From an uncultured Chloroflexia bacterium (GTDB taxonomy: Bacteria > Chloroflexota > Anaerolineae > Anaerolineales > E44-bin32), in assembly GCA_963777165.1 (NCBI GenBank), contig CAVZPO010000021.1, positions 140,187 through 204,186 of the forward strand: DNA of 64,000 nt, written 5' to 3'. Position numbers and translations under genes: made by a program. The notes beneath the pieces are model-generated. The model ran no database searches. It was not told the origin of the DNA and saw nothing but the letters and a program-made list of their open reading frames with translations. Positions 1,130 through 44,881 of this stretch are shown here, one piece after another (within the stretch, counting starts at the first letter, position 1; each line of letters starts with the position of its first letter).

Positions 1130-3277
1130 TTACCTCAGGATCTGGAGTAGGTTGCTGTAGTCGTCCGTCCATAGGCGCAGCCCGGCGGGGATCGCCGGCG
1201 CGGCGGCCTCCCGGGCAGCGAGCGCCGGAACGTCGAGCAGACTACGATCGCGGGCAAGCAGCATCCAGATCGAGTCGTAGCTCCGCACGGCGTCCCCTCG
1301 ATCCTCGATCTTCACGGCCTGAAGGCCGAACTCTTCGGCCAGCCGGTAGACCGGCAGGCTCAGATCGAAGTATCGATTGGAGACGTTCACCGCCAGCACG
1401 CCGTCCGAAGCCAGATGCTGCAAATAGACCTCAAAGGCCTCGCGCGTGAGCAAGTGCAAGGGAACCGCGTCCCCGCTGAACGCGTCCAGCACCAGGACAT
1501 CGAAGTCCTGCGGCCCCGGGTTGGACAACTCACGCTCGAGCGACAGGCGCGCATCGCCAGCCACGATCTGCGTCTCCGCCTTGGAGCCCGACACGAACGA
1601 GAAGTAACCGCCATCGCCTTCTGCAAGGCGGATCATGTCCGGGTTGATCTCGTAGAAACGTAACACGTCGCCCGGCTGCGCGTAGTGTGCGATCACCCCA
1701 ACGCCCAGCCCCAGTCCGCCGATGCGCAGGCTCGCCGGGCGAGCAGGGTGGTTAAGCAGCGCCAGCCCCACCCCGCTGGTCTCCGCATAGTAGGTCGTCG
1801 GCACATCGCGCAGTTCGGGGGCCTCGAACTGGAACCCGTGCACCGTCCGGCCATGGGTGAGCTGATAGGCCCGTAGGGCCGGCTCTTCCGTATTGATCTC
1901 CCATACCCGCAGCACGCCATAGAACCCGCGCCGCACGGCGAGCGTGCTGGAGGCAAACGCGGCCATCAAAGCGATCACCAGCCCGCTCAGCAACAGGAGC
2001 AACGCCGCCGAAGCCAGGATGTCCGGCCGGAGCTTTCGCCCCTGTGAAGCGCTTCGCCCGGCTGTCTTGTGTTGACGCCGTCGCGACGCCGCCGCCGGGC
2101 GCTCCCGCACGATCACGATCGTGAGCAGTACACCGCAGGCGACGACGGCCCACTGCAGTTCCCAGAAACCGGAGGGGAATACGAACGGTGCGACCAGGTT
2201 GACGAAGATCCCGCCCAGCGCCCCTCCGACGGCTACCATCAGATAGAACGAAGGCAGGGAGCGCGGTGACGGACGCAGCCCGTACAGTTCGCAGTGGCAG
2301 ATCATCGACGCCACGAACAGCAGCCCGGCGTAGATCAACATCTGGGTCAGGATGGTGAACGGGGGAGATTTCGCCAGCATCCACACGCTGAGGAATGCAA
2401 ACCCGAAGTAGGCGATCCGATAAACTCGCCGCGAGTATCCGCGTCCGCCCGAGAACGCCAGAATGAAGGTCAGCAGGTAGATCGAAAGCGGCACGACCCA
2501 CAGGAACGGGACCGCGGCCACTTCTTGCGTGGTCTGGCTCGTCACCGAAATCAGCAGTGCCGAGGCGACCGCCGCCAGCCCGGCCCACAAGAGATGCAGC
2601 CTGAGGCCGGGGCGGGCCTCCGCCTCTTTCGGGGCGTTGCGGCTCGCCTCGGGGACCGACGGGGCACGGCGGTACGCCCTCAGCGCCAGGGCCGCCGCAC
2701 TGACGGCGAAGGCCGCGTAACCCGCCGTCCACAAGAAGGCCTGCGCTCGGAGCGTGAGGAGAGGTTCGAACACGAGCGGGTAGCTGATCAGCGCCGCCAA
2801 GGAACCGGCATTGGACAACGCATACAGGCGGTAGGGGGTCTGCGCGCGCTGTTCATGACTGAACCAGGCCTGCATCAGCGTGCTGTTGGACGCCAGCAGG
2901 AAGTACGGCACCCCGACGGCGACTGCCAGCAGGCGCAGGATTCCCCAGACGGGCAGCGTGTTGTCGACCGGGCGCCACGCGATGTCCGGTGTCAGCGGCG
3001 ACGGCCACGTCAACGCCGCAATCCCCAGCAGGCCCAAGGAGATCGCCAGGAAGACAAGGTGCACGATCCCCTGCTGGCGGCCGCGCAGGCGGCCGAGGAG
3101 CCAGTAGGCATACGCGTACCCGCCGGTCAGGACACACTGGAAGAAGAGCAGTACGGTAGACCACACGGCCGCCGTCCCGCCAAACCATGGCAGGATCGCC
3201 TTGCCGATCATGGGTTGAATTTGGAAGAGCAGGAAGGCCGAGAGAATAACACTCAGTGCGTAGGCGTTCGCCATCAT
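1130..3277 (-). CDS. fused polytopic membrane domain + spermidine synthase-like (class I SAM/aminopropyl transferase) protein
   Basis: 715-aa ORF. The N-terminal ~400 aa are hydrophobic multi-TM. The C-terminus carries GGLGLGVG..YEINP..VLVLDAFSGDAVPLHLLTREAF..L...GVLAVNVSN, typical of spermidine synthase-like proteins. Confidence 0.8.
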   Translation of the reverse strand: MMANAYALSVILSAFLLFQIQPMIGKAILPWFGGTAAVWSTVLLFFQCVLTGGYAYAYWLLGRLRGRQQGIVHLVFLAISLGLLGIAALTWPSPLTPDIAWRPVDNTLPVWGILRLLAVAVGVPYFLLASNSTLMQAWFSHEQRAQTPYRLYALSNAGSLAALISYPLVFEPLLTLRAQAFLWTAGYAAFAVSAAALALRAYRRAPSVPEASRNAPKEAEARPGLRLHLLWAGLAAVASALLISVTSQTTQEVAAVPFLWVVPLSIYLLTFILAFSGGRGYSRRVYRIAYFGFAFLSVWMLAKSPPFTILTQMLIYAGLLFVASMICHCELYGLRPSPRSLPSFYLMVAVGGALGGIFVNLVAPFVFPSGFWELQWAVVACGVLLTIVIVRERPAAASRRRQHKTAGRSASQGRKLRPDILASAALLLLLSGLVIALMAAFASSTLAVRRGFYGVLRVWEINTEEPALRAYQLTHGRTVHGFQFEAPELRDVPTTYYAETSGVGLALLNHPARPASLRIGGLGLGVGVIAHYAQPGDVLRFYEINPDMIRLAEGDGGYFSFVSGSKAETQIVAGDARLSLERELSNPGPQDFDVLVLDAFSGDAVPLHLLTREAFEVYLQHLASDGVLAVNVSNRYFDLSLPVYRLAEEFGLQAVKIEDRGDAVRSYDSIWMLLARDRSLLDVPALAAREAAAPAIPAGLRLWTDDYSNLLQILR

Positions 3278-12555: not shown

Positions 12556-13722
12556 ATGCGCCGACTGTTCCGCCAAGTGCTCGCTTCCCTGGCCCCCCGG
12601 GTGGATCCCGACGAGAAGCCCTACCGCGTCCAGCTGGGGCGGGCGGCCGTCCGGGTCTCCCTGGTGCTGCTCAGCTGCTGGCTGCTGATCGAAATCCTGA
12701 TCGTGCAGCTGCTGCGGCCCGAGTCCGACCATGCCTGGCGCTACGACCTAGTGGCGATCCTCGTCCTGGCGGCGGTCCTGGCGGTGGCCGAAGGGTTCGT
12801 GCGCAAGGGGCGCACGACGGTCGTCGGGTACCTGCTGGCGATCAGCTTCTTCCTGTACCCGCTGGTGAATGCGTTTATCGTCCCAGGGGACATCTACCTG
12901 GTCAACGTCGCCTTCCTGATCTCGATTGTCGCCGCCGGCGCTATGGTCGGCGGCGGCCCGGCCTACCTGTTTGCCGGACTGACGACGCTGGCCAACGTCG
13001 GGACCTGGCTCTACGCCAGCGGCCATCCCGTGGCGCTGGTCCATCCCTTCGACCCGACGACCGGGGCGATCTTCCTGCTGAGCAACACCCTCGTGGCCGT
13101 GGCCCTGGCCGCGGTGCTGAACTTCTACTCCAGCTACATGCGGCGCAGCATCTCGGCTCTGAACGTGCAGGCCGAGCAGATGACCGAGCTGGCGCATACC
13201 GATCCGATGACCGGGCTGGCCAACCGGCGCTGGCTGATGGAACAGCTCGGGCGTGAGTTCTCGCGCGCCCGGCGCTACCGGCGGCCGCTCAGTCTGCTCT
13301 ATCTCGACCTCGACGGGTTCAAGGCGATCAACGACCGCTTCGGCCACCTGTTCGGCGACGAGGTGCTCACCGGGGCCGGGCGGGCGATGAAGTCCGTGCT
13401 GCGCTCGACCGACTTGCTGGCGCGCATCGGCGGAGACGAGTTCGTCGTCCTGCTTCCTGAGACCGGGATCGAGGGCGCCCACAACGTAACCGCCAAACTG
13501 CGCAAGTCGCTCAACGCCTACGGCCAGCAGCTCGGCCCGGCGGTCCCGATGTTGTCGTTCTGCGCCGGCGTCAGCCAGCTCCATCCGGACAATTCCACGA
13601 TCGACGACATCCTGTCCCGCGCCGACGAAGCACAGTATCTGGCCAAGGGCACGGGCCCCGGGCACACCCGCTCCGAACGCGAACTCGTCGTCTCTCCGCC
13701 GCCTTCACCTTCGCCGGGGTAG
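12556..13722 (+). CDS. membrane-anchored diguanylate cyclase (GGDEF)
   Basis: About 190 aa of TM segments, then DPMTGLANRR...LDLDGFKAINDRFGHLFGDEVL...RIGGDEFVVLLPE. Confidence 0.85.
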   Translation: MRRLFRQVLASLAPRVDPDEKPYRVQLGRAAVRVSLVLLSCWLLIEILIVQLLRPESDHAWRYDLVAILVLAAVLAVAEGFVRKGRTTVVGYLLAISFFLYPLVNAFIVPGDIYLVNVAFLISIVAAGAMVGGGPAYLFAGLTTLANVGTWLYASGHPVALVHPFDPTTGAIFLLSNTLVAVALAAVLNFYSSYMRRSISALNVQAEQMTELAHTDPMTGLANRRWLMEQLGREFSRARRYRRPLSLLYLDLDGFKAINDRFGHLFGDEVLTGAGRAMKSVLRSTDLLARIGGDEFVVLLPETGIEGAHNVTAKLRKSLNAYGQQLGPAVPMLSFCAGVSQLHPDNSTIDDILSRADEAQYLAKGTGPGHTRSERELVVSPPPSPSPG

Positions 13723-13737
13723 GGCAGCACGAAGCGG

Positions 13738-13960
13738 TCAGCTTTCAGCCGTCAGCGATCAACGATCAGCGGTCGGAGGCTGGGTAGGACCGGTATCTGT
13801 TCCCATCGCATGTGGCAGGTGGCGGGTGGCAATTAGCCTAAAGCTCGGCGCCAGCTGTGTTCCCTGGTCGCCAACGGCCAATTGCCAGTGGCTGATTGCT
13901 GGCTGCTAATCGCTGCTTGCTTGTTGCGGATCGCTGACTGCTGATCGCTATTCGCTTCTT
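13738..13960. repeat. intergenic element made of inverted heptanucleotide-repeat arrays (copy 1)
   Basis: Left arm: 6 units of period 7 with TCAGC at 13738, 13745, 13752, (13759), 13766, (13773). Right arm: 13 units of period 7, each starting GC(T/C), at 13870...13954 (for example GCTGATT GCTGGCT GCTAATC GCTGACT GCTGATC). The arms are reverse complements in motif. Confidence 0.8.
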
Positions 13961-13977
13961 CCCAATCGAGGTGCCCC

Positions 13978-14403
13978 GTGGTCCACACCGGCCGAATACG
14001 CCTGAACACGCGTGGCAACGCCGATACTCACGACCTGACCGAACGGGTGGCGGAGGTCGTCGCCGAGTCGGGAGTCCATGCAGGCACGGCCACGGTCTTC
14101 ACCCCTTCCTCGACCAGCGCGCTGACGACCATCGAGTACGAGGACGGCGCGCTCGAAGACCTGCGCCGAGCGCTGAACGAGATCGCCTCGCCGGAACGTG
14201 AATACCGCCACAACCTGCGTTGGGGTGACGGGAACGGACATGCGCACCTGCGGGCGGCGCTCCTCGGTCCTTCGCTCAGCATCCCGGTCGTCGACGGGCG
14301 CCTCACGCTGGGCACCTGGCAGCAGGTGCTCTACCTCGATTTCGACGTCCGACCGCGGCAGCGAGAGATCCTGGTGCAGGTGGTGGGCGAGGCGCAGGGA
14401 TGA
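13978..14403 (+). CDS. YjbQ/UPF0047 family protein (secondary thiamine-phosphate synthase-like)
   Basis: 141 aa; TATVFTPSSTSALTTIEYEDGALEDL....GNGHAHLRAALLGPSLSIPV..G.L.LGTWQQV. Confidence 0.85.
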   Translation: MVHTGRIRLNTRGNADTHDLTERVAEVVAESGVHAGTATVFTPSSTSALTTIEYEDGALEDLRRALNEIASPEREYRHNLRWGDGNGHAHLRAALLGPSLSIPVVDGRLTLGTWQQVLYLDFDVRPRQREILVQVVGEAQG

Positions 14404-30440: not shown

Positions 30441-30454
30441 CGGGGACATCCAAC

Positions 30455-30550
30455 TTGCACGGGGAGCCCGGTGTGCCGGGCTGAGAGGAGGGCTGTCAGC
30501 CCTCGACCCGCGGAACCTGATCCGGGTAATGCCGGCGGAGGGAGCACGAC
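30455..30550 (+). promoter_or_regulatory. TPP (THI-box) riboswitch
   Basis: ACGGGGAGCCCGG..CCGGGCTGAGAGGAGGGC...GCCCTCGACCC..GGAACCTGATCCGGGTAATGCCGGCGGAGGGAG contains the conserved CUGAGA, ACCUGAUC.GG.UAAUGCC.GCG.AGGGA elements. Confidence 0.85.
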
Positions 30551-30589
30551 CATCTCGTCACCATCACCCTCCCCTGCACCCGGTGGAGG

Positions 30590-37857: not shown

Positions 37858-37931
37858 TCCTCGGTAGCTCAATAGGCAGAGCGGGCGGCTGTTAACCGCT
37901 AGGTTCCAGGTTCGAAGTCCTGGCCGAGGAG
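37858..37931 (+). tRNA. tRNA-Asn (GTT)
   Basis: Acceptor stem TCCTCGG/CCGAGGA; D-arm TAGCTCAATAGGCAGAGC; anticodon stem-loop GGCGG-CTGTTAA-CCGCT; T-arm CCAGGTTCGAAGTCCTGG. No encoded CCA. Confidence 0.9.
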
Positions 37932-42968: not shown

Positions 42969-43926
42969 ATGAAGCCTCGTCGTGTACTCCCCGCATCCCC
43001 GCCCTCGTCGGAGATCACGCCGGAGGCGGTGTATCTCAATCGAAGGGCGTTCCTGCGCGCGGCCGGGATCGCCGGCGCGGGCGCGCTGCTGGCCGCATGC
43101 GGCGTAAAGGAGCAGCCGGCCGTCTCTCCGGCTCCCGGCCTCTCGGCCAGCTCCCAGGTTGACGAACTCGGCGCCCCGCTCACCGCCTTCGAGTCGGTGA
43201 CGAACTACAACAACTACTACGAGTTCACCACCGACAAGGAGGGTGTCGCCGGGCTGGCCAAGGACTTCCCCGTCCGGCCGTGGACCGTCCAGGTGGGCGG
43301 GCTGGTCCATAAGCCGGCCACGTTCGCCATCGACGACCTGCTCACCGCCATCCCCCAGGAGGAGCGCATCTACCGGCTGCGTTGCGTCGAGGCGTGGTCG
43401 ATGGTCATTCCCTGGATGGGCTTCGAACTCGGCCGACTGCTGGACCTGGTCGAACCGATGAGCTCCGCCGGCTATGTTGGCTTCACCACGCTCCTCGACC
43501 CCGATCAGATGCCCGGCCAACGCAGCCCGTTCTATCCGTGGCCATACACCGAAGGGCTGCGCCTGGACGAAGCGAAGCACACGCTGACACTGCTGTCCGC
43601 AGGTCTGTACGGGCAGCCTCTGCTCCCGCAGAACGGCGCGCCGCTCCGCCTGGTGGTGCCCATGGAAGTACGGCTTCAAGAGCATCAAGGCCATCGTGCG
43701 GATCGACTTGCTCGAGCAGCCCCCGGCGACCATGTGGAGCACGATCGCACCGGAAGAGTACGGGTTCTACGCCAACGTCAACCCCGAGGTCGATCACCCG
43801 CGCTGGTCGCAGGGCTCCGAGCGCCGCATCGGCGAGGGCGGCCGGCGTGAGACCTTGATGTTCAACGGCTATGCCGATCAGGTTGCCGGTATGTACGCCG
43901 GCATGGACCTGCAGGCCAGCTACTGA
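42969..43926 (+). pseudogene. msrP: periplasmic protein-methionine-sulfoxide reductase catalytic subunit MsrP (YedY), +1 frame shift at 43662
   Basis: Tat-like signal RRAFLRAAGIAGAG. YNNYYEFTTDK and RLRCVEAWSMVIPW up to GAPLRLVVP lie in frame 0. The family continuation [16 protein letters not shown]...[26 protein letters not shown]...LMFNGY lies in frame +1. Deleting a43662 (ccc-a-tgg) joins them. Confidence 0.9.
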
Positions 43927-43940
43927 TCCGGGAACACCGG

Positions 43941-44646
43941 ATGCCCACCCTGCCTACCGCGCCCGCCCGTGAACCGCCCCGATGGCTCCAGCGATTACAG
44001 GCGATCGACCTGCTTCGGTTGGCAGTCCACGTTGGCGCGCTGCTCCCGGCCGTGTGGATCCTTGCCGGATGGGTGAGTGGGGATCTGACCGCCAACCCGT
44101 ACCAGGCCGTCGAACAGCGAACCGGCAAGACGGCATTGATCCTGCTCGTCCTTTCGCTTGCGTGTTCACCAGTCAACCTGCTGTTTGGCTGGCGTGCGGT
44201 GCTGCGGCACCGCCGCACGCTGGGCTTGTACGCCTTCACCTACGCCGGGATACATCTCCTCGCCCTGGTCGGCCTCGACTACGGATTCGACTTCCGTCTG
44301 TTGCGCGCCGACCTGACGGGCAAGCCCTTCATCTGGGTGGGTGCCGCCGCGCTCTTGTTCCTGGCCGCCCTGGCCGCCACCTCCTTCCCGGCCTGGAAGA
44401 AGCGCATGGGCAAGAACTGGAAGCGGCTGCACCGCATGGCGTACCTCGCCGTCCTCCTGGTTGTGGTTCACTATGCATGGGCGCGCAAGGGAAACCTGAC
44501 CGCGCTGAGCGGGGACATTGTGCAGCCGGTTGCCTTCGGTGCCCTCGCCTGTCGTTCTGCTCCTGCTGCGCGTGCCGGCCGTCAAACGCTGGATCGCACA
44601 ACGTCGTGGGGCTGGCATGGAAGCGCGGGCGGGGGTCGGAAACTAG
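43941..44646 (+). pseudogene. msrQ: MsrQ (YedZ) heme-b membrane subunit, probable +1 frame shift at about 44550
   Basis: Ferric-reductase-like TM domain (RRTLGLYAFTYAGIHLL...HRMAYLAVLLVVVHY). After ...VAFGALA, frame 0 gives a non-hydrophobic tail. Frame +1 gives VVLLLLRVPAVKRWIAQRRGAGMEARAGVGN-stop, a last TM plus a basic tail. Confidence 0.7.
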
Positions 44647-44801
44647 CAGTCAGCAATTAGCAGTCAGCAACTAGCAACTAGCCATTTGCAGTTGGCGGGG
44701 GCCGTTGGCGACAAGATGTTCGTGAAGTGCTATGGGTAGCTGAAGGCCAGTAGCTCCTGGCTTGCAGCCAGCTGCTAGCCGCTGGTTGCTGGTTGCTTCC
44801 A
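44646..44801. repeat. intergenic element made of inverted heptanucleotide-repeat arrays (copy 2)
   Basis: Left arm, period 7 from 44646: GCAGTCA GCAATTA GCAGTCA GCAACTA GCAACTA GCCATTT GCAGTTG GCGGGG GCCGTTG GCGACAA. Right arm, period 7 from 44739: GCTGAAG GCCAGTA GCTCCTG GCTTGCA GCCAGCT GCTAGCC GCTGGTT GCTGGTT GCTTCCA. It shares a 34-40 nt block, including GCCGTTGGCGAC, with copy 1 in inverted orientation. Confidence 0.8.
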
Positions 44802-44881
44802 CCTGGCCTCGCCTCCCCCGGCTGACCTTGAACCCCCCGAACACACAGCTTATACTGGCGTCGGAGGCTGCAGATCTCGGA

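Follow-up and report, generated by a model that had tools for sequence, protein, structure and literature searches.

What fills the 255-nt spacer between a GGDEF diguanylate cyclase gene and yjbQ in a 64-kb stretch of DNA from an uncultured Chloroflexia bacterium (the whole stretch is referred to below as the window)? A first-pass annotation had described the spacer as an intergenic element built from inverted arrays of heptanucleotide repeats. Based on the analysis reported here, it was concluded that this element (copy 1, 13726-13960) is a worn and expanded member of a widespread family of heptad palindromes, and that it is an old, decaying copy. The family form is 5'-AGC(NNTCAGC)~4 - loop - (GCTGANN)~4GCT-3'. 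A second element of the window (element 2) is located at 44641-44801.

Both flanking genes lie on the + strand and were taken from the list of open reading frames (ORFs). The GGDEF gene (12556..13722), on whose orthologs PF00990 was recorded, ends with a TAG stop codon at 13720-13722, and yjbQ (13978..14403; PF01894) starts with GTG at 13978. The spacer between them had been described as 255 nt long and lower in GC than its surroundings, and both statements held, the GC content being 0.58-0.64 vs ~0.68 in the flanks. The 7-nt periodicity was also recovered. When period-7 autocorrelation was calculated by sliding over the window (mean 0.275, standard deviation 0.067), the four arms of copy 1 and element 2 reached 0.59-0.67 and were the top four peaks of the window. 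The AGC-N4 x4 pattern AGCNNNNAGCNNNNAGCNNNNAGC was matched nine times in the window and only in these four arms, when 0.05 matches were expected from shuffles. In both elements, the AGC-phase matches of the + strand fell in the left arms and those of the - strand in the right arms.

The left arm of copy 1 (13726..13779, + strand; from the sequence and the inverted repeat) starts with an AGC anchor at 13726, 3 nt beyond the stop codon of the GGDEF gene, and consists of the AGC-anchored heptads AGCACGA, AGCGGTC, AGCTTTC, AGCCGTC, AGCGATC, AACGATC and AGCGGTC, followed by GGAGG. In the TCAGC register (13731-13779), the same arm is read as GAAGCGG, TCAGCTT, TCAGCCG, TCAGCGA, TCAACGA, TCAGCGG and TCGGAGG. 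Six TCAGC units had been assigned to it previously; four of them were found to be exact, and the remaining two (TCAACGA and TCGGAGG) are degenerate. The right arm (13891..13960, + strand; Tandem Repeats Finder (TRF), inverted repeat and motif scan) comprises ten GCT-anchored heptads from GCTGATT to GCTTCTT. It is the reverse complement of the left arm in kind, and the exact GCTGA core is present in three of its units (GCTGATT, GCTGACT and GCTGATC). Directly before it stands a block (13867..13890, + strand) of GTC and the heptads GCCAACG, GCCAATT and GCCAGTG. On the - strand, this block is an array of another heptad type, NNTTGGC, and has TTGGCGAC as its terminus; one IMG/VR locus (L249) shows an array of this type with an identical terminus. 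The thirteen GC-initial units that had been placed at 13870-13960 could be read in phase across this block and the right arm as GCCAACG, GCCAATT, GCCAGTG, GCTGATT, GCTGGCT, GCTAATC, GCTGCTT, GCTTGTT, GCGGATC, GCTGACT, GCTGATC, GCTATTC and GCTTCTT; TRF gave periods of 7 and 21 for this range.

Between the arms, a non-periodic central segment (13780..13807) is followed by the degenerate GC-anchored heptads GCATGTG, GCAGGTG, GCGGGTG, GCAATTA, GCCTAAA, GCTCGGC and GCCAGCT together with the bases after them (13808..13863, + strand; TRF period 7 at 13808-13831). The centre of copy 1 is thus largely heptad-built as well, a feature absent from the earlier description. The inner inverted pair reported for the centre, TGGCAATTAGCC / GGCCAATTGCCA, was found to be 92% complementary over 12 nt, with its left half (13827-13838) inside the degenerate heptads and its right half (13876-13887) inside the block of 13867..13890. 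The outer inverted repeat (13731-13760 / 13929-13958) extends over 30 nt with 80% complementarity, and the terminal unit GAAGC at 13731 pairs with GCTTC at 13954-13958, i.e. the closing AGC...GCT units. The fold of the spacer was estimated at -115.3 kcal/mol (z -2.8 for the + strand and z -3.6 for the - strand). Relative to the family mode of four units per arm, copy 1 is expanded and degenerate, with four exact TCAGC units on the left and 10-13 units on the right, three of which hold an exact GCTGA. Its right end lies 7 nt before the Shine-Dalgarno (SD)-like GAGGTG of yjbQ (13968..13973, + strand), which is intact between the element and the start codon and conserved in all orthologs, including an empty site (L577).

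No terminator-like site was found at either copy in the window, and no sigma-70 promoter was found inside copy 1. The covariance models of Rfam gave nothing meaningful on either element, even at E up to 10. The only Rfam matches of the window at the gathering threshold were a TPP riboswitch (66.6 bits) at 30450-30561 (+) and a tRNA gene at 37858-37931 (+).

The nearest named YjbQ relatives belong to metagenome-assembled genomes (MAGs) of Anaerolineae/Chloroflexi. In syntenic metagenome contigs whose YjbQ is 99%, 91% and 89% identical, this spacer likewise holds the element in every case. Its units vary in number and sequence among these orthologs: one (L001) has one heptad fewer, another (L574) a longer GCCAA array, and a third (L003) combines six left-hand TCAGC cores with four right-hand GCTGA. 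By alignment, the central segment 13780..13807 is conserved in the window, L001, L002 and L574 and not in L003. The long imperfect hairpin proposed in the first-pass annotation was borne out, and in all orthologs the outer TCAGC and GCTGA arrays are paired with each other in the minimum free energy (MFE) fold. Lack of conservation and an insignificant periodicity, which the annotation had named as grounds against the element, were not found: it is kept at 89-99% YjbQ identity, and its periodicity lies far beyond shuffles. Because copy 1 is kept in close relatives, is absent from a relative at 78% identity and varies in its units, it was concluded that the element was gained or lost within the clade and evolves in place by unit turnover.

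Further, species-representative genomes were scanned with the pattern (TCAGCNN)x4 - 2-32 nt - (GCTGANN)x4. At least 120 stretches matched this paired pattern, and the MAGs that hold them represent 11 or more phyla. Among the 80 matches listed, 36 came from Acidobacteriota, 11 from Planctomycetota, 8 from Desulfobacterota and relatives, 7 from Bacteroidota, 5 from Nitrospirota, 4 from Proteobacteria, 2 each from Chloroflexota and Gemmatimonadota, and 1 each from Myxococcota, Elusimicrobia and Vulcanimicrobiota; all of the listed matches were MAGs, some on contigs of 2-5 Mb. Four tandem TCAGCNN units were also present in at least 120 stretches of IMG/VR, and a complete scan of that collection gave 76 stretches with the paired arrangement vs 2 with the mirror arrangement (~38:1). 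One 34-kb IMG/VR contig, encoding a tape measure protein and DNA methylases, carries at least 14 copies, located at most of its gene boundaries. A BLAST search of a canonical element against PLSDB plasmids and INPHARED phages returned no match, for which the low-complexity filter may be the cause. At the gathering threshold, Rfam gave nothing on the elements in 16 loci with canonical copies.

The anatomy of the family was determined from about 175 non-redundant copies, and 170 copies were searched for target-site duplications. An arm consists of a terminal AGC and four NNTCAGC units (mode 4, range 3-7), giving five AGC anchors. The elements end sharply: the last GCTGA is followed by N, A (0.59), G (0.92), C (0.94) and T (0.82), the composition is random from the next base on, and the complementarity between the two flanks ends at AGCT too. 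The flanks are weakly T-rich (0.42 T at +8 and +9). Handedness is constant, with the TCAGC arm 5' and the GCTGA arm 3', so that an element of the family reads identically on both strands. The loop measures 2-94 nt with a weak mod-7 preference; neither a fixed length of the inter-arm gap nor its helical (10.5-bp) phasing was seen.

Heptamer arrays with the cores TGCCA, CACTG, AGTCC and GCATC are likewise far above chance in IMG/VR, but they differ clearly in kind, although TGCCA, CACTG and AGTCC overlap YCAGY-type heptamers such as STRR1 of cyanobacteria and are imperfect negative controls. They are mostly perfect simple sequence repeats (SSRs) with long tails and showed no facing pairs, whereas perfect repeats make up just 10% of the TCAGC arrays.

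Several observations were made beside these. Arbitrary-core heptamer SSRs are common in viral contigs of IMG/VR, and some perfect repeats are very long, e.g. 16 x TGCCAGT (L258:12353-12462, L250:8495-8548, L560:14566-14703). Unpaired TCAGCNN arrays of IMG/VR (L007-L126) are sometimes located inside long ORFs, always with TCAGC in sense (13 and 32 cases); GCTGANN in sense would give TGA in all three frames, and the TCAGCNN arrays, provided that the ORFs are real, would specify peptide repeats with a period of 7 residues. In Desulfobacteraceae-type MAGs (L152, L180, L206, L224, L238 and, in the opposite orientation, L221, L231, L234), the TCAGC palindrome lies inside a larger repeated unit with a conserved loop and an adjacent CCAGAAA-N-TTTCTGG hairpin, and the NN bases vary between the copies despite the conserved loop and flanks.

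The two arrays of a canonical copy can pair into a very stable stem-loop of 5-6-bp helices with a mismatch every 7 nt; the folds range from -39 to -62 kcal/mol (z -4.8 to -7.6) and show periodic internal loops. The 5-nt core is invariant and the dinucleotide NN is free to vary. Overall, no compensatory pairing was found at mirrored NN positions (complementarity of 0.25-0.27 vs 0.28-0.29 for shuffled pairs). The two bases of the dinucleotide behave differently: the one beside the U-A pair shuns complementarity (0.186 vs 0.273, -4.3 standard deviations), and the one beside the C-G pair is complementary slightly above chance (0.349 vs 0.290). Within an element, units that mirror each other show less resemblance than units that do not. 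Units i and i+2 of one arm are often identical in NN (0.23 vs 0.089 expected), which gives a 14-nt superperiod; TRF likewise reported periods of 14 and 21. It follows from the correlations across mirrored NN positions that the arms constrain each other and that the stem is kept interrupted every 7 nt.

The position of the paired elements relative to genes was then recorded. None lies inside an ORF. The contexts were co-directional in 111 cases, convergent in 15 and divergent in 15 (79%, 11% and 11%, respectively), several of the divergent calls being doubtful. In 76 of the 111 co-directional cases, the upstream stop codon lies within 15 nt of the first TCAGC and often overlaps the terminal unit as TAGC. 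On the other side, a peak of G at +13 after the element marks start codons at +11 to +13, and 39 long ORFs begin 7-13 nt past the last GCTGA. The Pfam-confirmed genes that start right after elements encode L15, L6 (twice), L2, Obg, GlyQ, an SdhB-like protein, LigA, a GatA-like amidase and HPF. Several downstream proteins match their Pfam models from residues 2-5, hence their start codons are correct. An SD-like tetramer is missing at 23 of the 27 downstream starts with recognisable canonical N-termini (ten of the 27 were Pfam-checked). A tract of T directly past the element (5 or more T within 8 nt) accompanies just 5% of the co-directional copies. In one Anaerolineales MAG, a canonical element (L179:2838-2920) fills the spacer between two tRNA genes (2756-3002), ~5 nt and 4 nt away from them. 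Since elements occur within essential operons, they must be transcribed as a part of the mRNA, cannot be terminators and are compatible with efficient initiation directly downstream.

One such junction, rpmD-rplO, was compared across lineages in 80 metagenomic loci, which were retrieved around genes related to the L15 gene of one carrier. About half of the spacers are 0-21 nt long with an SD-like motif. In other lineages (Acidobacteriota-like), the same junction holds long hairpins of facing heptad arrays whose cores differ: AGTTC / GAACT (L589:1041-1140), TTTTCAG / CTGAAAA (L612:1097-1192, 94% complementary over 32 nt), GTGNGAA / TTCACAC (L586:1077-1140), GTTGG / CCAAC (L584:38-107), an ATTT-type core (L609:1083-1185), and TCAGC / GCTGA (L590, L581, L141 and L198). 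Most of these palindromes have superperiods of 14 or 21 nt. That the arms stay complementary while the core differs favours a paired structure and disfavours a single sequence-specific reader. As a separate observation, the ~50 nt that precede rplO in several contigs (L585-L594) contain a conserved leader, AACGCGAGTCGGC...GCCGGCG(Y)TA.AGCGAGGAAA, which is placed after the heptad palindrome and before the L15 start codon and may represent a leader motif of ribosomal protein genes.

It was proposed, with belief and doubt evenly balanced, that the family is a co-transcribed, mismatch-punctuated intercistronic stem-loop that is grown by slippage and resembles the repetitive extragenic palindromic (REP) elements. 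Strand slippage would add or remove units of 7 or 14 nt and so change the length of the stem. A 5-bp stem with two unpaired bases would turn into the repeating unit, in which pairing would hold the core and NN would drift. Such gain and loss of units would explain why the arms are periodic and why a given site has other cores in other lineages. At the foot of the stem, the stop codon of the upstream gene would come close to the start region of the downstream one, and the stem-loop may buffer the 3' end of the upstream cistron. Next to the 5' arm, a terminating ribosome would open the stem at its foot, where the 3' strand adjoins the next start codon; with both codons at the foot, termination would thus free the next initiation region and couple or gate the next cistron. 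The retained mismatches would shield the RNA from RNase III or keep the DNA palindrome from becoming unstable. For copy 1 itself, any effect is probably modest at most, because its arrays are expanded and worn.

Several points weigh against the stem-loop proposal. The function is read wholly from position and anatomy. Coupling cannot apply to the canonical copies flanked by convergent genes (about 11%) or by divergent genes (up to 11%). The fixed handedness, with the TCAGC arm 5', and the dominance of TCAGC across phyla are not explained by a stem-loop alone. An excess of G-U over A-C at NN on the transcribed strand was not seen (78 vs 107), and the avoidance of pairing at NN could stem from the instability of perfect DNA palindromes rather than from a property of the RNA. 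In the window, both copies are degenerate, the fold of element 2 hardly beats shuffles (z -1.3 to -2.6), and copy 1 retains a normal SD, so that it need not do anything. Moreover, the syntenic relative at 78% YjbQ identity lacks the element altogether; its 171-nt spacer has zero heptads and a TATACT box instead.

The same evidence was weighed against other explanations. The elements may be a neutral or selfish by-product, spacer hairpins that grew by slipped-strand heptad duplication and persist as harmless and functionless. This is possible, though it was considered clearly doubtful. It agrees with the background-like distribution of contexts (79% co-directional, 11% convergent and 11% divergent), with the lack of strand bias in unpaired arrays, with the fast turnover of units and the degenerate copies of the window lineage, and with the syntenic relative from which the element is missing without an obvious replacement. 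Arrays of arbitrary core are also common in IMG/VR, with 52-94 stretches vs ~0.1 expected (a rough estimate for 20 specified bases). A by-product would hardly be expected to keep its core invariant while NN is free, with mirrored NN that shun pairing, nor to show a sharp mode of four units, sharp ends and a handedness of ~38:1. Equally, the sites are flush with stop and start codons and are not scattered over long spacers, they are dense in size-limited phage genomes, and they take the SD position of ribosomal protein genes. It was judged unlikely that the arms are phased arrays to which a sequence-specific protein binds. The protein would bind either double-stranded DNA, with one dimer per 7-bp heptad as the ribbon-helix-helix (RHH) protein omega of pSM19035 does, or RNA, as the NAG-N4 readers do, and the arrays would face each other due to protein assembly. 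The 5-nt core that is invariant across phyla, the strict 7-nt phase with free NN, the 14-nt superperiod and the fixed handedness all suit it. So do the ~4 contiguous units per arm, as omega needs at least 4 contiguous heptads and binds both direct and inverted ones (PMC9499535), and the IHF/HU binding proposed for the paired five-heptamer sites of Geobacter (Aklujkar et al., PMC2700814). Nevertheless, a single reader cannot account for quite different cores at one junction in related lineages, correlation of mirrored NN across the arms is not expected of independent arrays, and the gap between arrays has neither a fixed length nor helical periodicity. Many copies lie within phage late and ribosomal protein operons, and no candidate protein can be named, no search for RHH genes having been made.

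Far less credible is a miniature inverted-repeat transposable element (MITE) or another transposase-mobilised element with subterminal repeat arrays, an origin that the first-pass annotation had raised for copy 1. Inverted ends, multiple copies and strictly intergenic sites would fit, as would the loop and flank, including the CCAGAAA...TTTCTGG hairpin, that the Desulfobacteraceae copies have in common. Over the 170 canonical copies, however, no target-site duplication was found at any offset; there was no 6-nt direct repeat, and those of 2-5 nt were due to the palindromic AGCT. Palindromy ends sharply at AGCT with no conserved flank past it, the copies lack the common NN and loop sequences expected of descendants of a master element, and orthologous copies change in place by gain and loss of units. 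The MITE reading was rejected for want of a target-site duplication. The least probable reading, to which almost no credence was given, is an intrinsic and possibly bidirectional transcription terminator. A stable GC-rich hairpin just past stop codons with weakly T-rich flanks (0.42 T at +8/+9) recalls one, but a T tract follows just 5% of the co-directional copies, no terminator-like site is present at either window copy, and copies within ribosomal protein operons and between tRNA genes are placed where termination would be lethal or polar. It was rejected on the lack of a T tract. Chi, primase, Type III restriction and MqsR (GCU) cleavage sites, C/D-box-like k-turns and Rho rut sites were weighed as well, and none of them found support.

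Heptameric intergenic repeats have been known since 1990, when the short tandemly repeated repetitive (STRR) sequences of Calothrix/Anabaena were described as highly iterated direct arrays of near-identical 7-nt units. The comparison with STRR made in the first-pass annotation was apt, as both are tandem intergenic heptanucleotide units, and STRR1 (CCCCAGT) fits NNYCAGY. The units themselves differ (CCCCAGT, TTGGTCA and CAACAGT in cyanobacteria vs NNTCAGC, GCTGANN and GCCAANN here), and STRR have no paired 4-unit arrays with a variable dinucleotide. The REP elements and bacterial interspersed mosaic elements (BIME) of enterobacteria are 20-40 nt long and non-periodic, have a GTAG-type tag and RAYT transposases, are lineage-specific and are rare just upstream of starts. 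REPs stabilise mRNA 3' ends and, within ~15 nt of a stop codon, cut the translation of the upstream gene. The present family shares with REP/BIME an extragenic imperfect palindrome that is co-transcribed, near stop codons and present in many copies; unlike them, it is heptad-periodic, ends in AGCT and lacks the GTAG tag.

The first-pass annotation was not aware of anything equivalent in high-GC genomes, a view that could not be upheld, as heptamer repeats have been reported from Xanthomonas (PMC4692102), Geobacter metallireducens (PMC2700814) and Beggiatoaceae (PMC4679880). The 'class 3 global regulator binding sites' of G. metallireducens are eight pairs of five tandem heptanucleotides, MTYCTGA, on opposite strands, which were proposed as IHF/HU sites (Aklujkar et al. 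2009, PMC2700814). Their five heptanucleotides per site recall the five AGC anchors found here, their opposite-strand pairs stand at variable distances (here, loops of 2-94 nt), they are intergenic, with one pair between proB and proA, and their heptamer contains CTGA. The differences are MTYCTGA vs NNGCTGA (G and not Y before CTGA) and the restriction to 8 pairs in one genome; no family-wide anatomy, handedness, codon proximity or cross-phylum distribution was reported (PMC2700814). The TAACTGA direct repeats of marine Beggiatoaceae, cyanobacteria and some Bacteroidetes are located just upstream of starts without ribosome-binding sites (MacGregor 2015, PMC4679880). They contain CTGA, and their reverse complement TATCAGT fits NNTCAG(C/T). 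As in the present family, they stand a few nt upstream of starts and overlap the expected ribosome-binding site, canonical SD are rare, ribosomal protein operons are included and the phylogenetic distribution is patchy. They differ in being direct repeats of one identical heptamer, with a single inverted pair, a 'forward' strand bias and no palindromic architecture. The intergenic GGGAATC heptamer repeats of the high-GC Xanthomonas genome (Rehm et al. 2015, PMC4692102) occupy the same gene pairs in related species, vary in length and sequence and include some inverted pairs; their motif is another one, G-rich and quadruplex-forming, and their distribution was not reported as cross-phylum. The omega (ParB) protein of pSM19035 recognises contiguous WATCACW heptads, direct and inverted, at least 4 contiguous ones being needed for full activity (PMC9499535). 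The 7-bp phasing, the minimum of 4 units and the TCA are common to these arrays and the family, but the omega arrays are plasmid-specific, lie in promoter regions, have one known RHH reader and no loop or paired arms, and are not spread through chromosomes. An excess of heptamer SSRs, heptamers being the most readily expanded in bacteria, and a polymerase-slippage hypothesis for it are attributed to Mrazek (2007, as cited in PMC4679880 and PMC4692102). A literature search on TCAGC/GCTGA heptamers and Chloroflexi heptanucleotide repeats yielded no account of the paired TCAGC family or of its handedness, mismatch rule, codon-hugging position or cross-phylum and phage spread. The Geobacter class 3 pairs and the Beggiatoaceae TAACTGA repeats are the closest descriptions, STRR and the Xanthomonas repeats are related in kind, and REP/BIME are the nearest functional analogues.

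The second copy in the window, sharing a block in opposite orientation with copy 1, was present as the annotation had claimed. The left half of element 2 (44641..44712, + strand; TRF, autocorrelation and motif scan) is made of AACTAGC, AGTCAGC, AATTAGC, AGTCAGC, AACTAGC, AACTAGC, CATTTGC and AGTTGGC, then GGGGGCC GTTGGCGAC, and the right arm (44739..44801, + strand; TRF and motif scan) of GCTGAAG, GCCAGTA, GCTCCTG, GCTTGCA, GCCAGCT, GCTAGCC, GCTGGTT, GCTGGTT and GCTTCCA. It has just two exact cores and, like copy 1, is expanded and degenerate relative to the mode of four units. The block GTCGCCAACGGCC and the heptads after it are common to copy 1 (13867-13890) and element 2 (44690-44712) in opposite orientation.

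Around element 2, an msrQ-like ORF (43941-44660) enters the left arm and stops at a TAG in the third heptad (44658-44660). Element 2 thus supplies the stop codon of this ORF after a tail of ~30 residues, which by eye is unlike conserved protein sequence. The ORF upstream of the msrQ-like gene (42969-43850) has, on reading its translation, a last stretch of ~60 residues unlike the rest, and a frameshift or sequencing error is possible. A promoter-like TTGAAC-17-TATACT (44828-44856, +) lies just right of element 2, upstream of a glycosyltransferase gene. A TATACT box (GCGTATACT) is also located upstream of yjbQ in relatives without copy 1 (L577, L576 and L006).

A broader version of the stem-loop proposal was also put forward, which we regard as speculative and rather improbable as a whole. 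Heptad-periodic palindromes would be a general, unrecognised class of intercistronic signal of bacteria and phages, with TCAGC as the commonest of many cores, in which a strand-symmetric, mismatch-punctuated stem with the stop and start codons at its foot would replace the SD. Translation of the next cistron, even of ribosomal protein genes, would depend on prior termination or on a heptad-reading factor, and the handedness would reflect what the ribosome tolerates just 5' of a start codon.

Among the long simple repeats of prokaryotes, none is more over-represented than the heptamer, and what these repeats mean has been an open question since STRR. The family described here is sharply searchable by its paired 4-unit arrays, invariant core, mismatched dinucleotide and fixed handedness. 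Its habitat is the phyla of soil, sediment and rumen and their phages, where it directly abuts stop and start codons, also at essential genes without SD. For the window itself the consequence is small. If the elements are slippage products only, they would offer a clean natural system for hairpin growth. If translation coupling or mRNA protection is true, the family would explain the expression of many genes of Acidobacteriota, Planctomycetota and their relatives, and would provide a new annotation signal for operon junctions.

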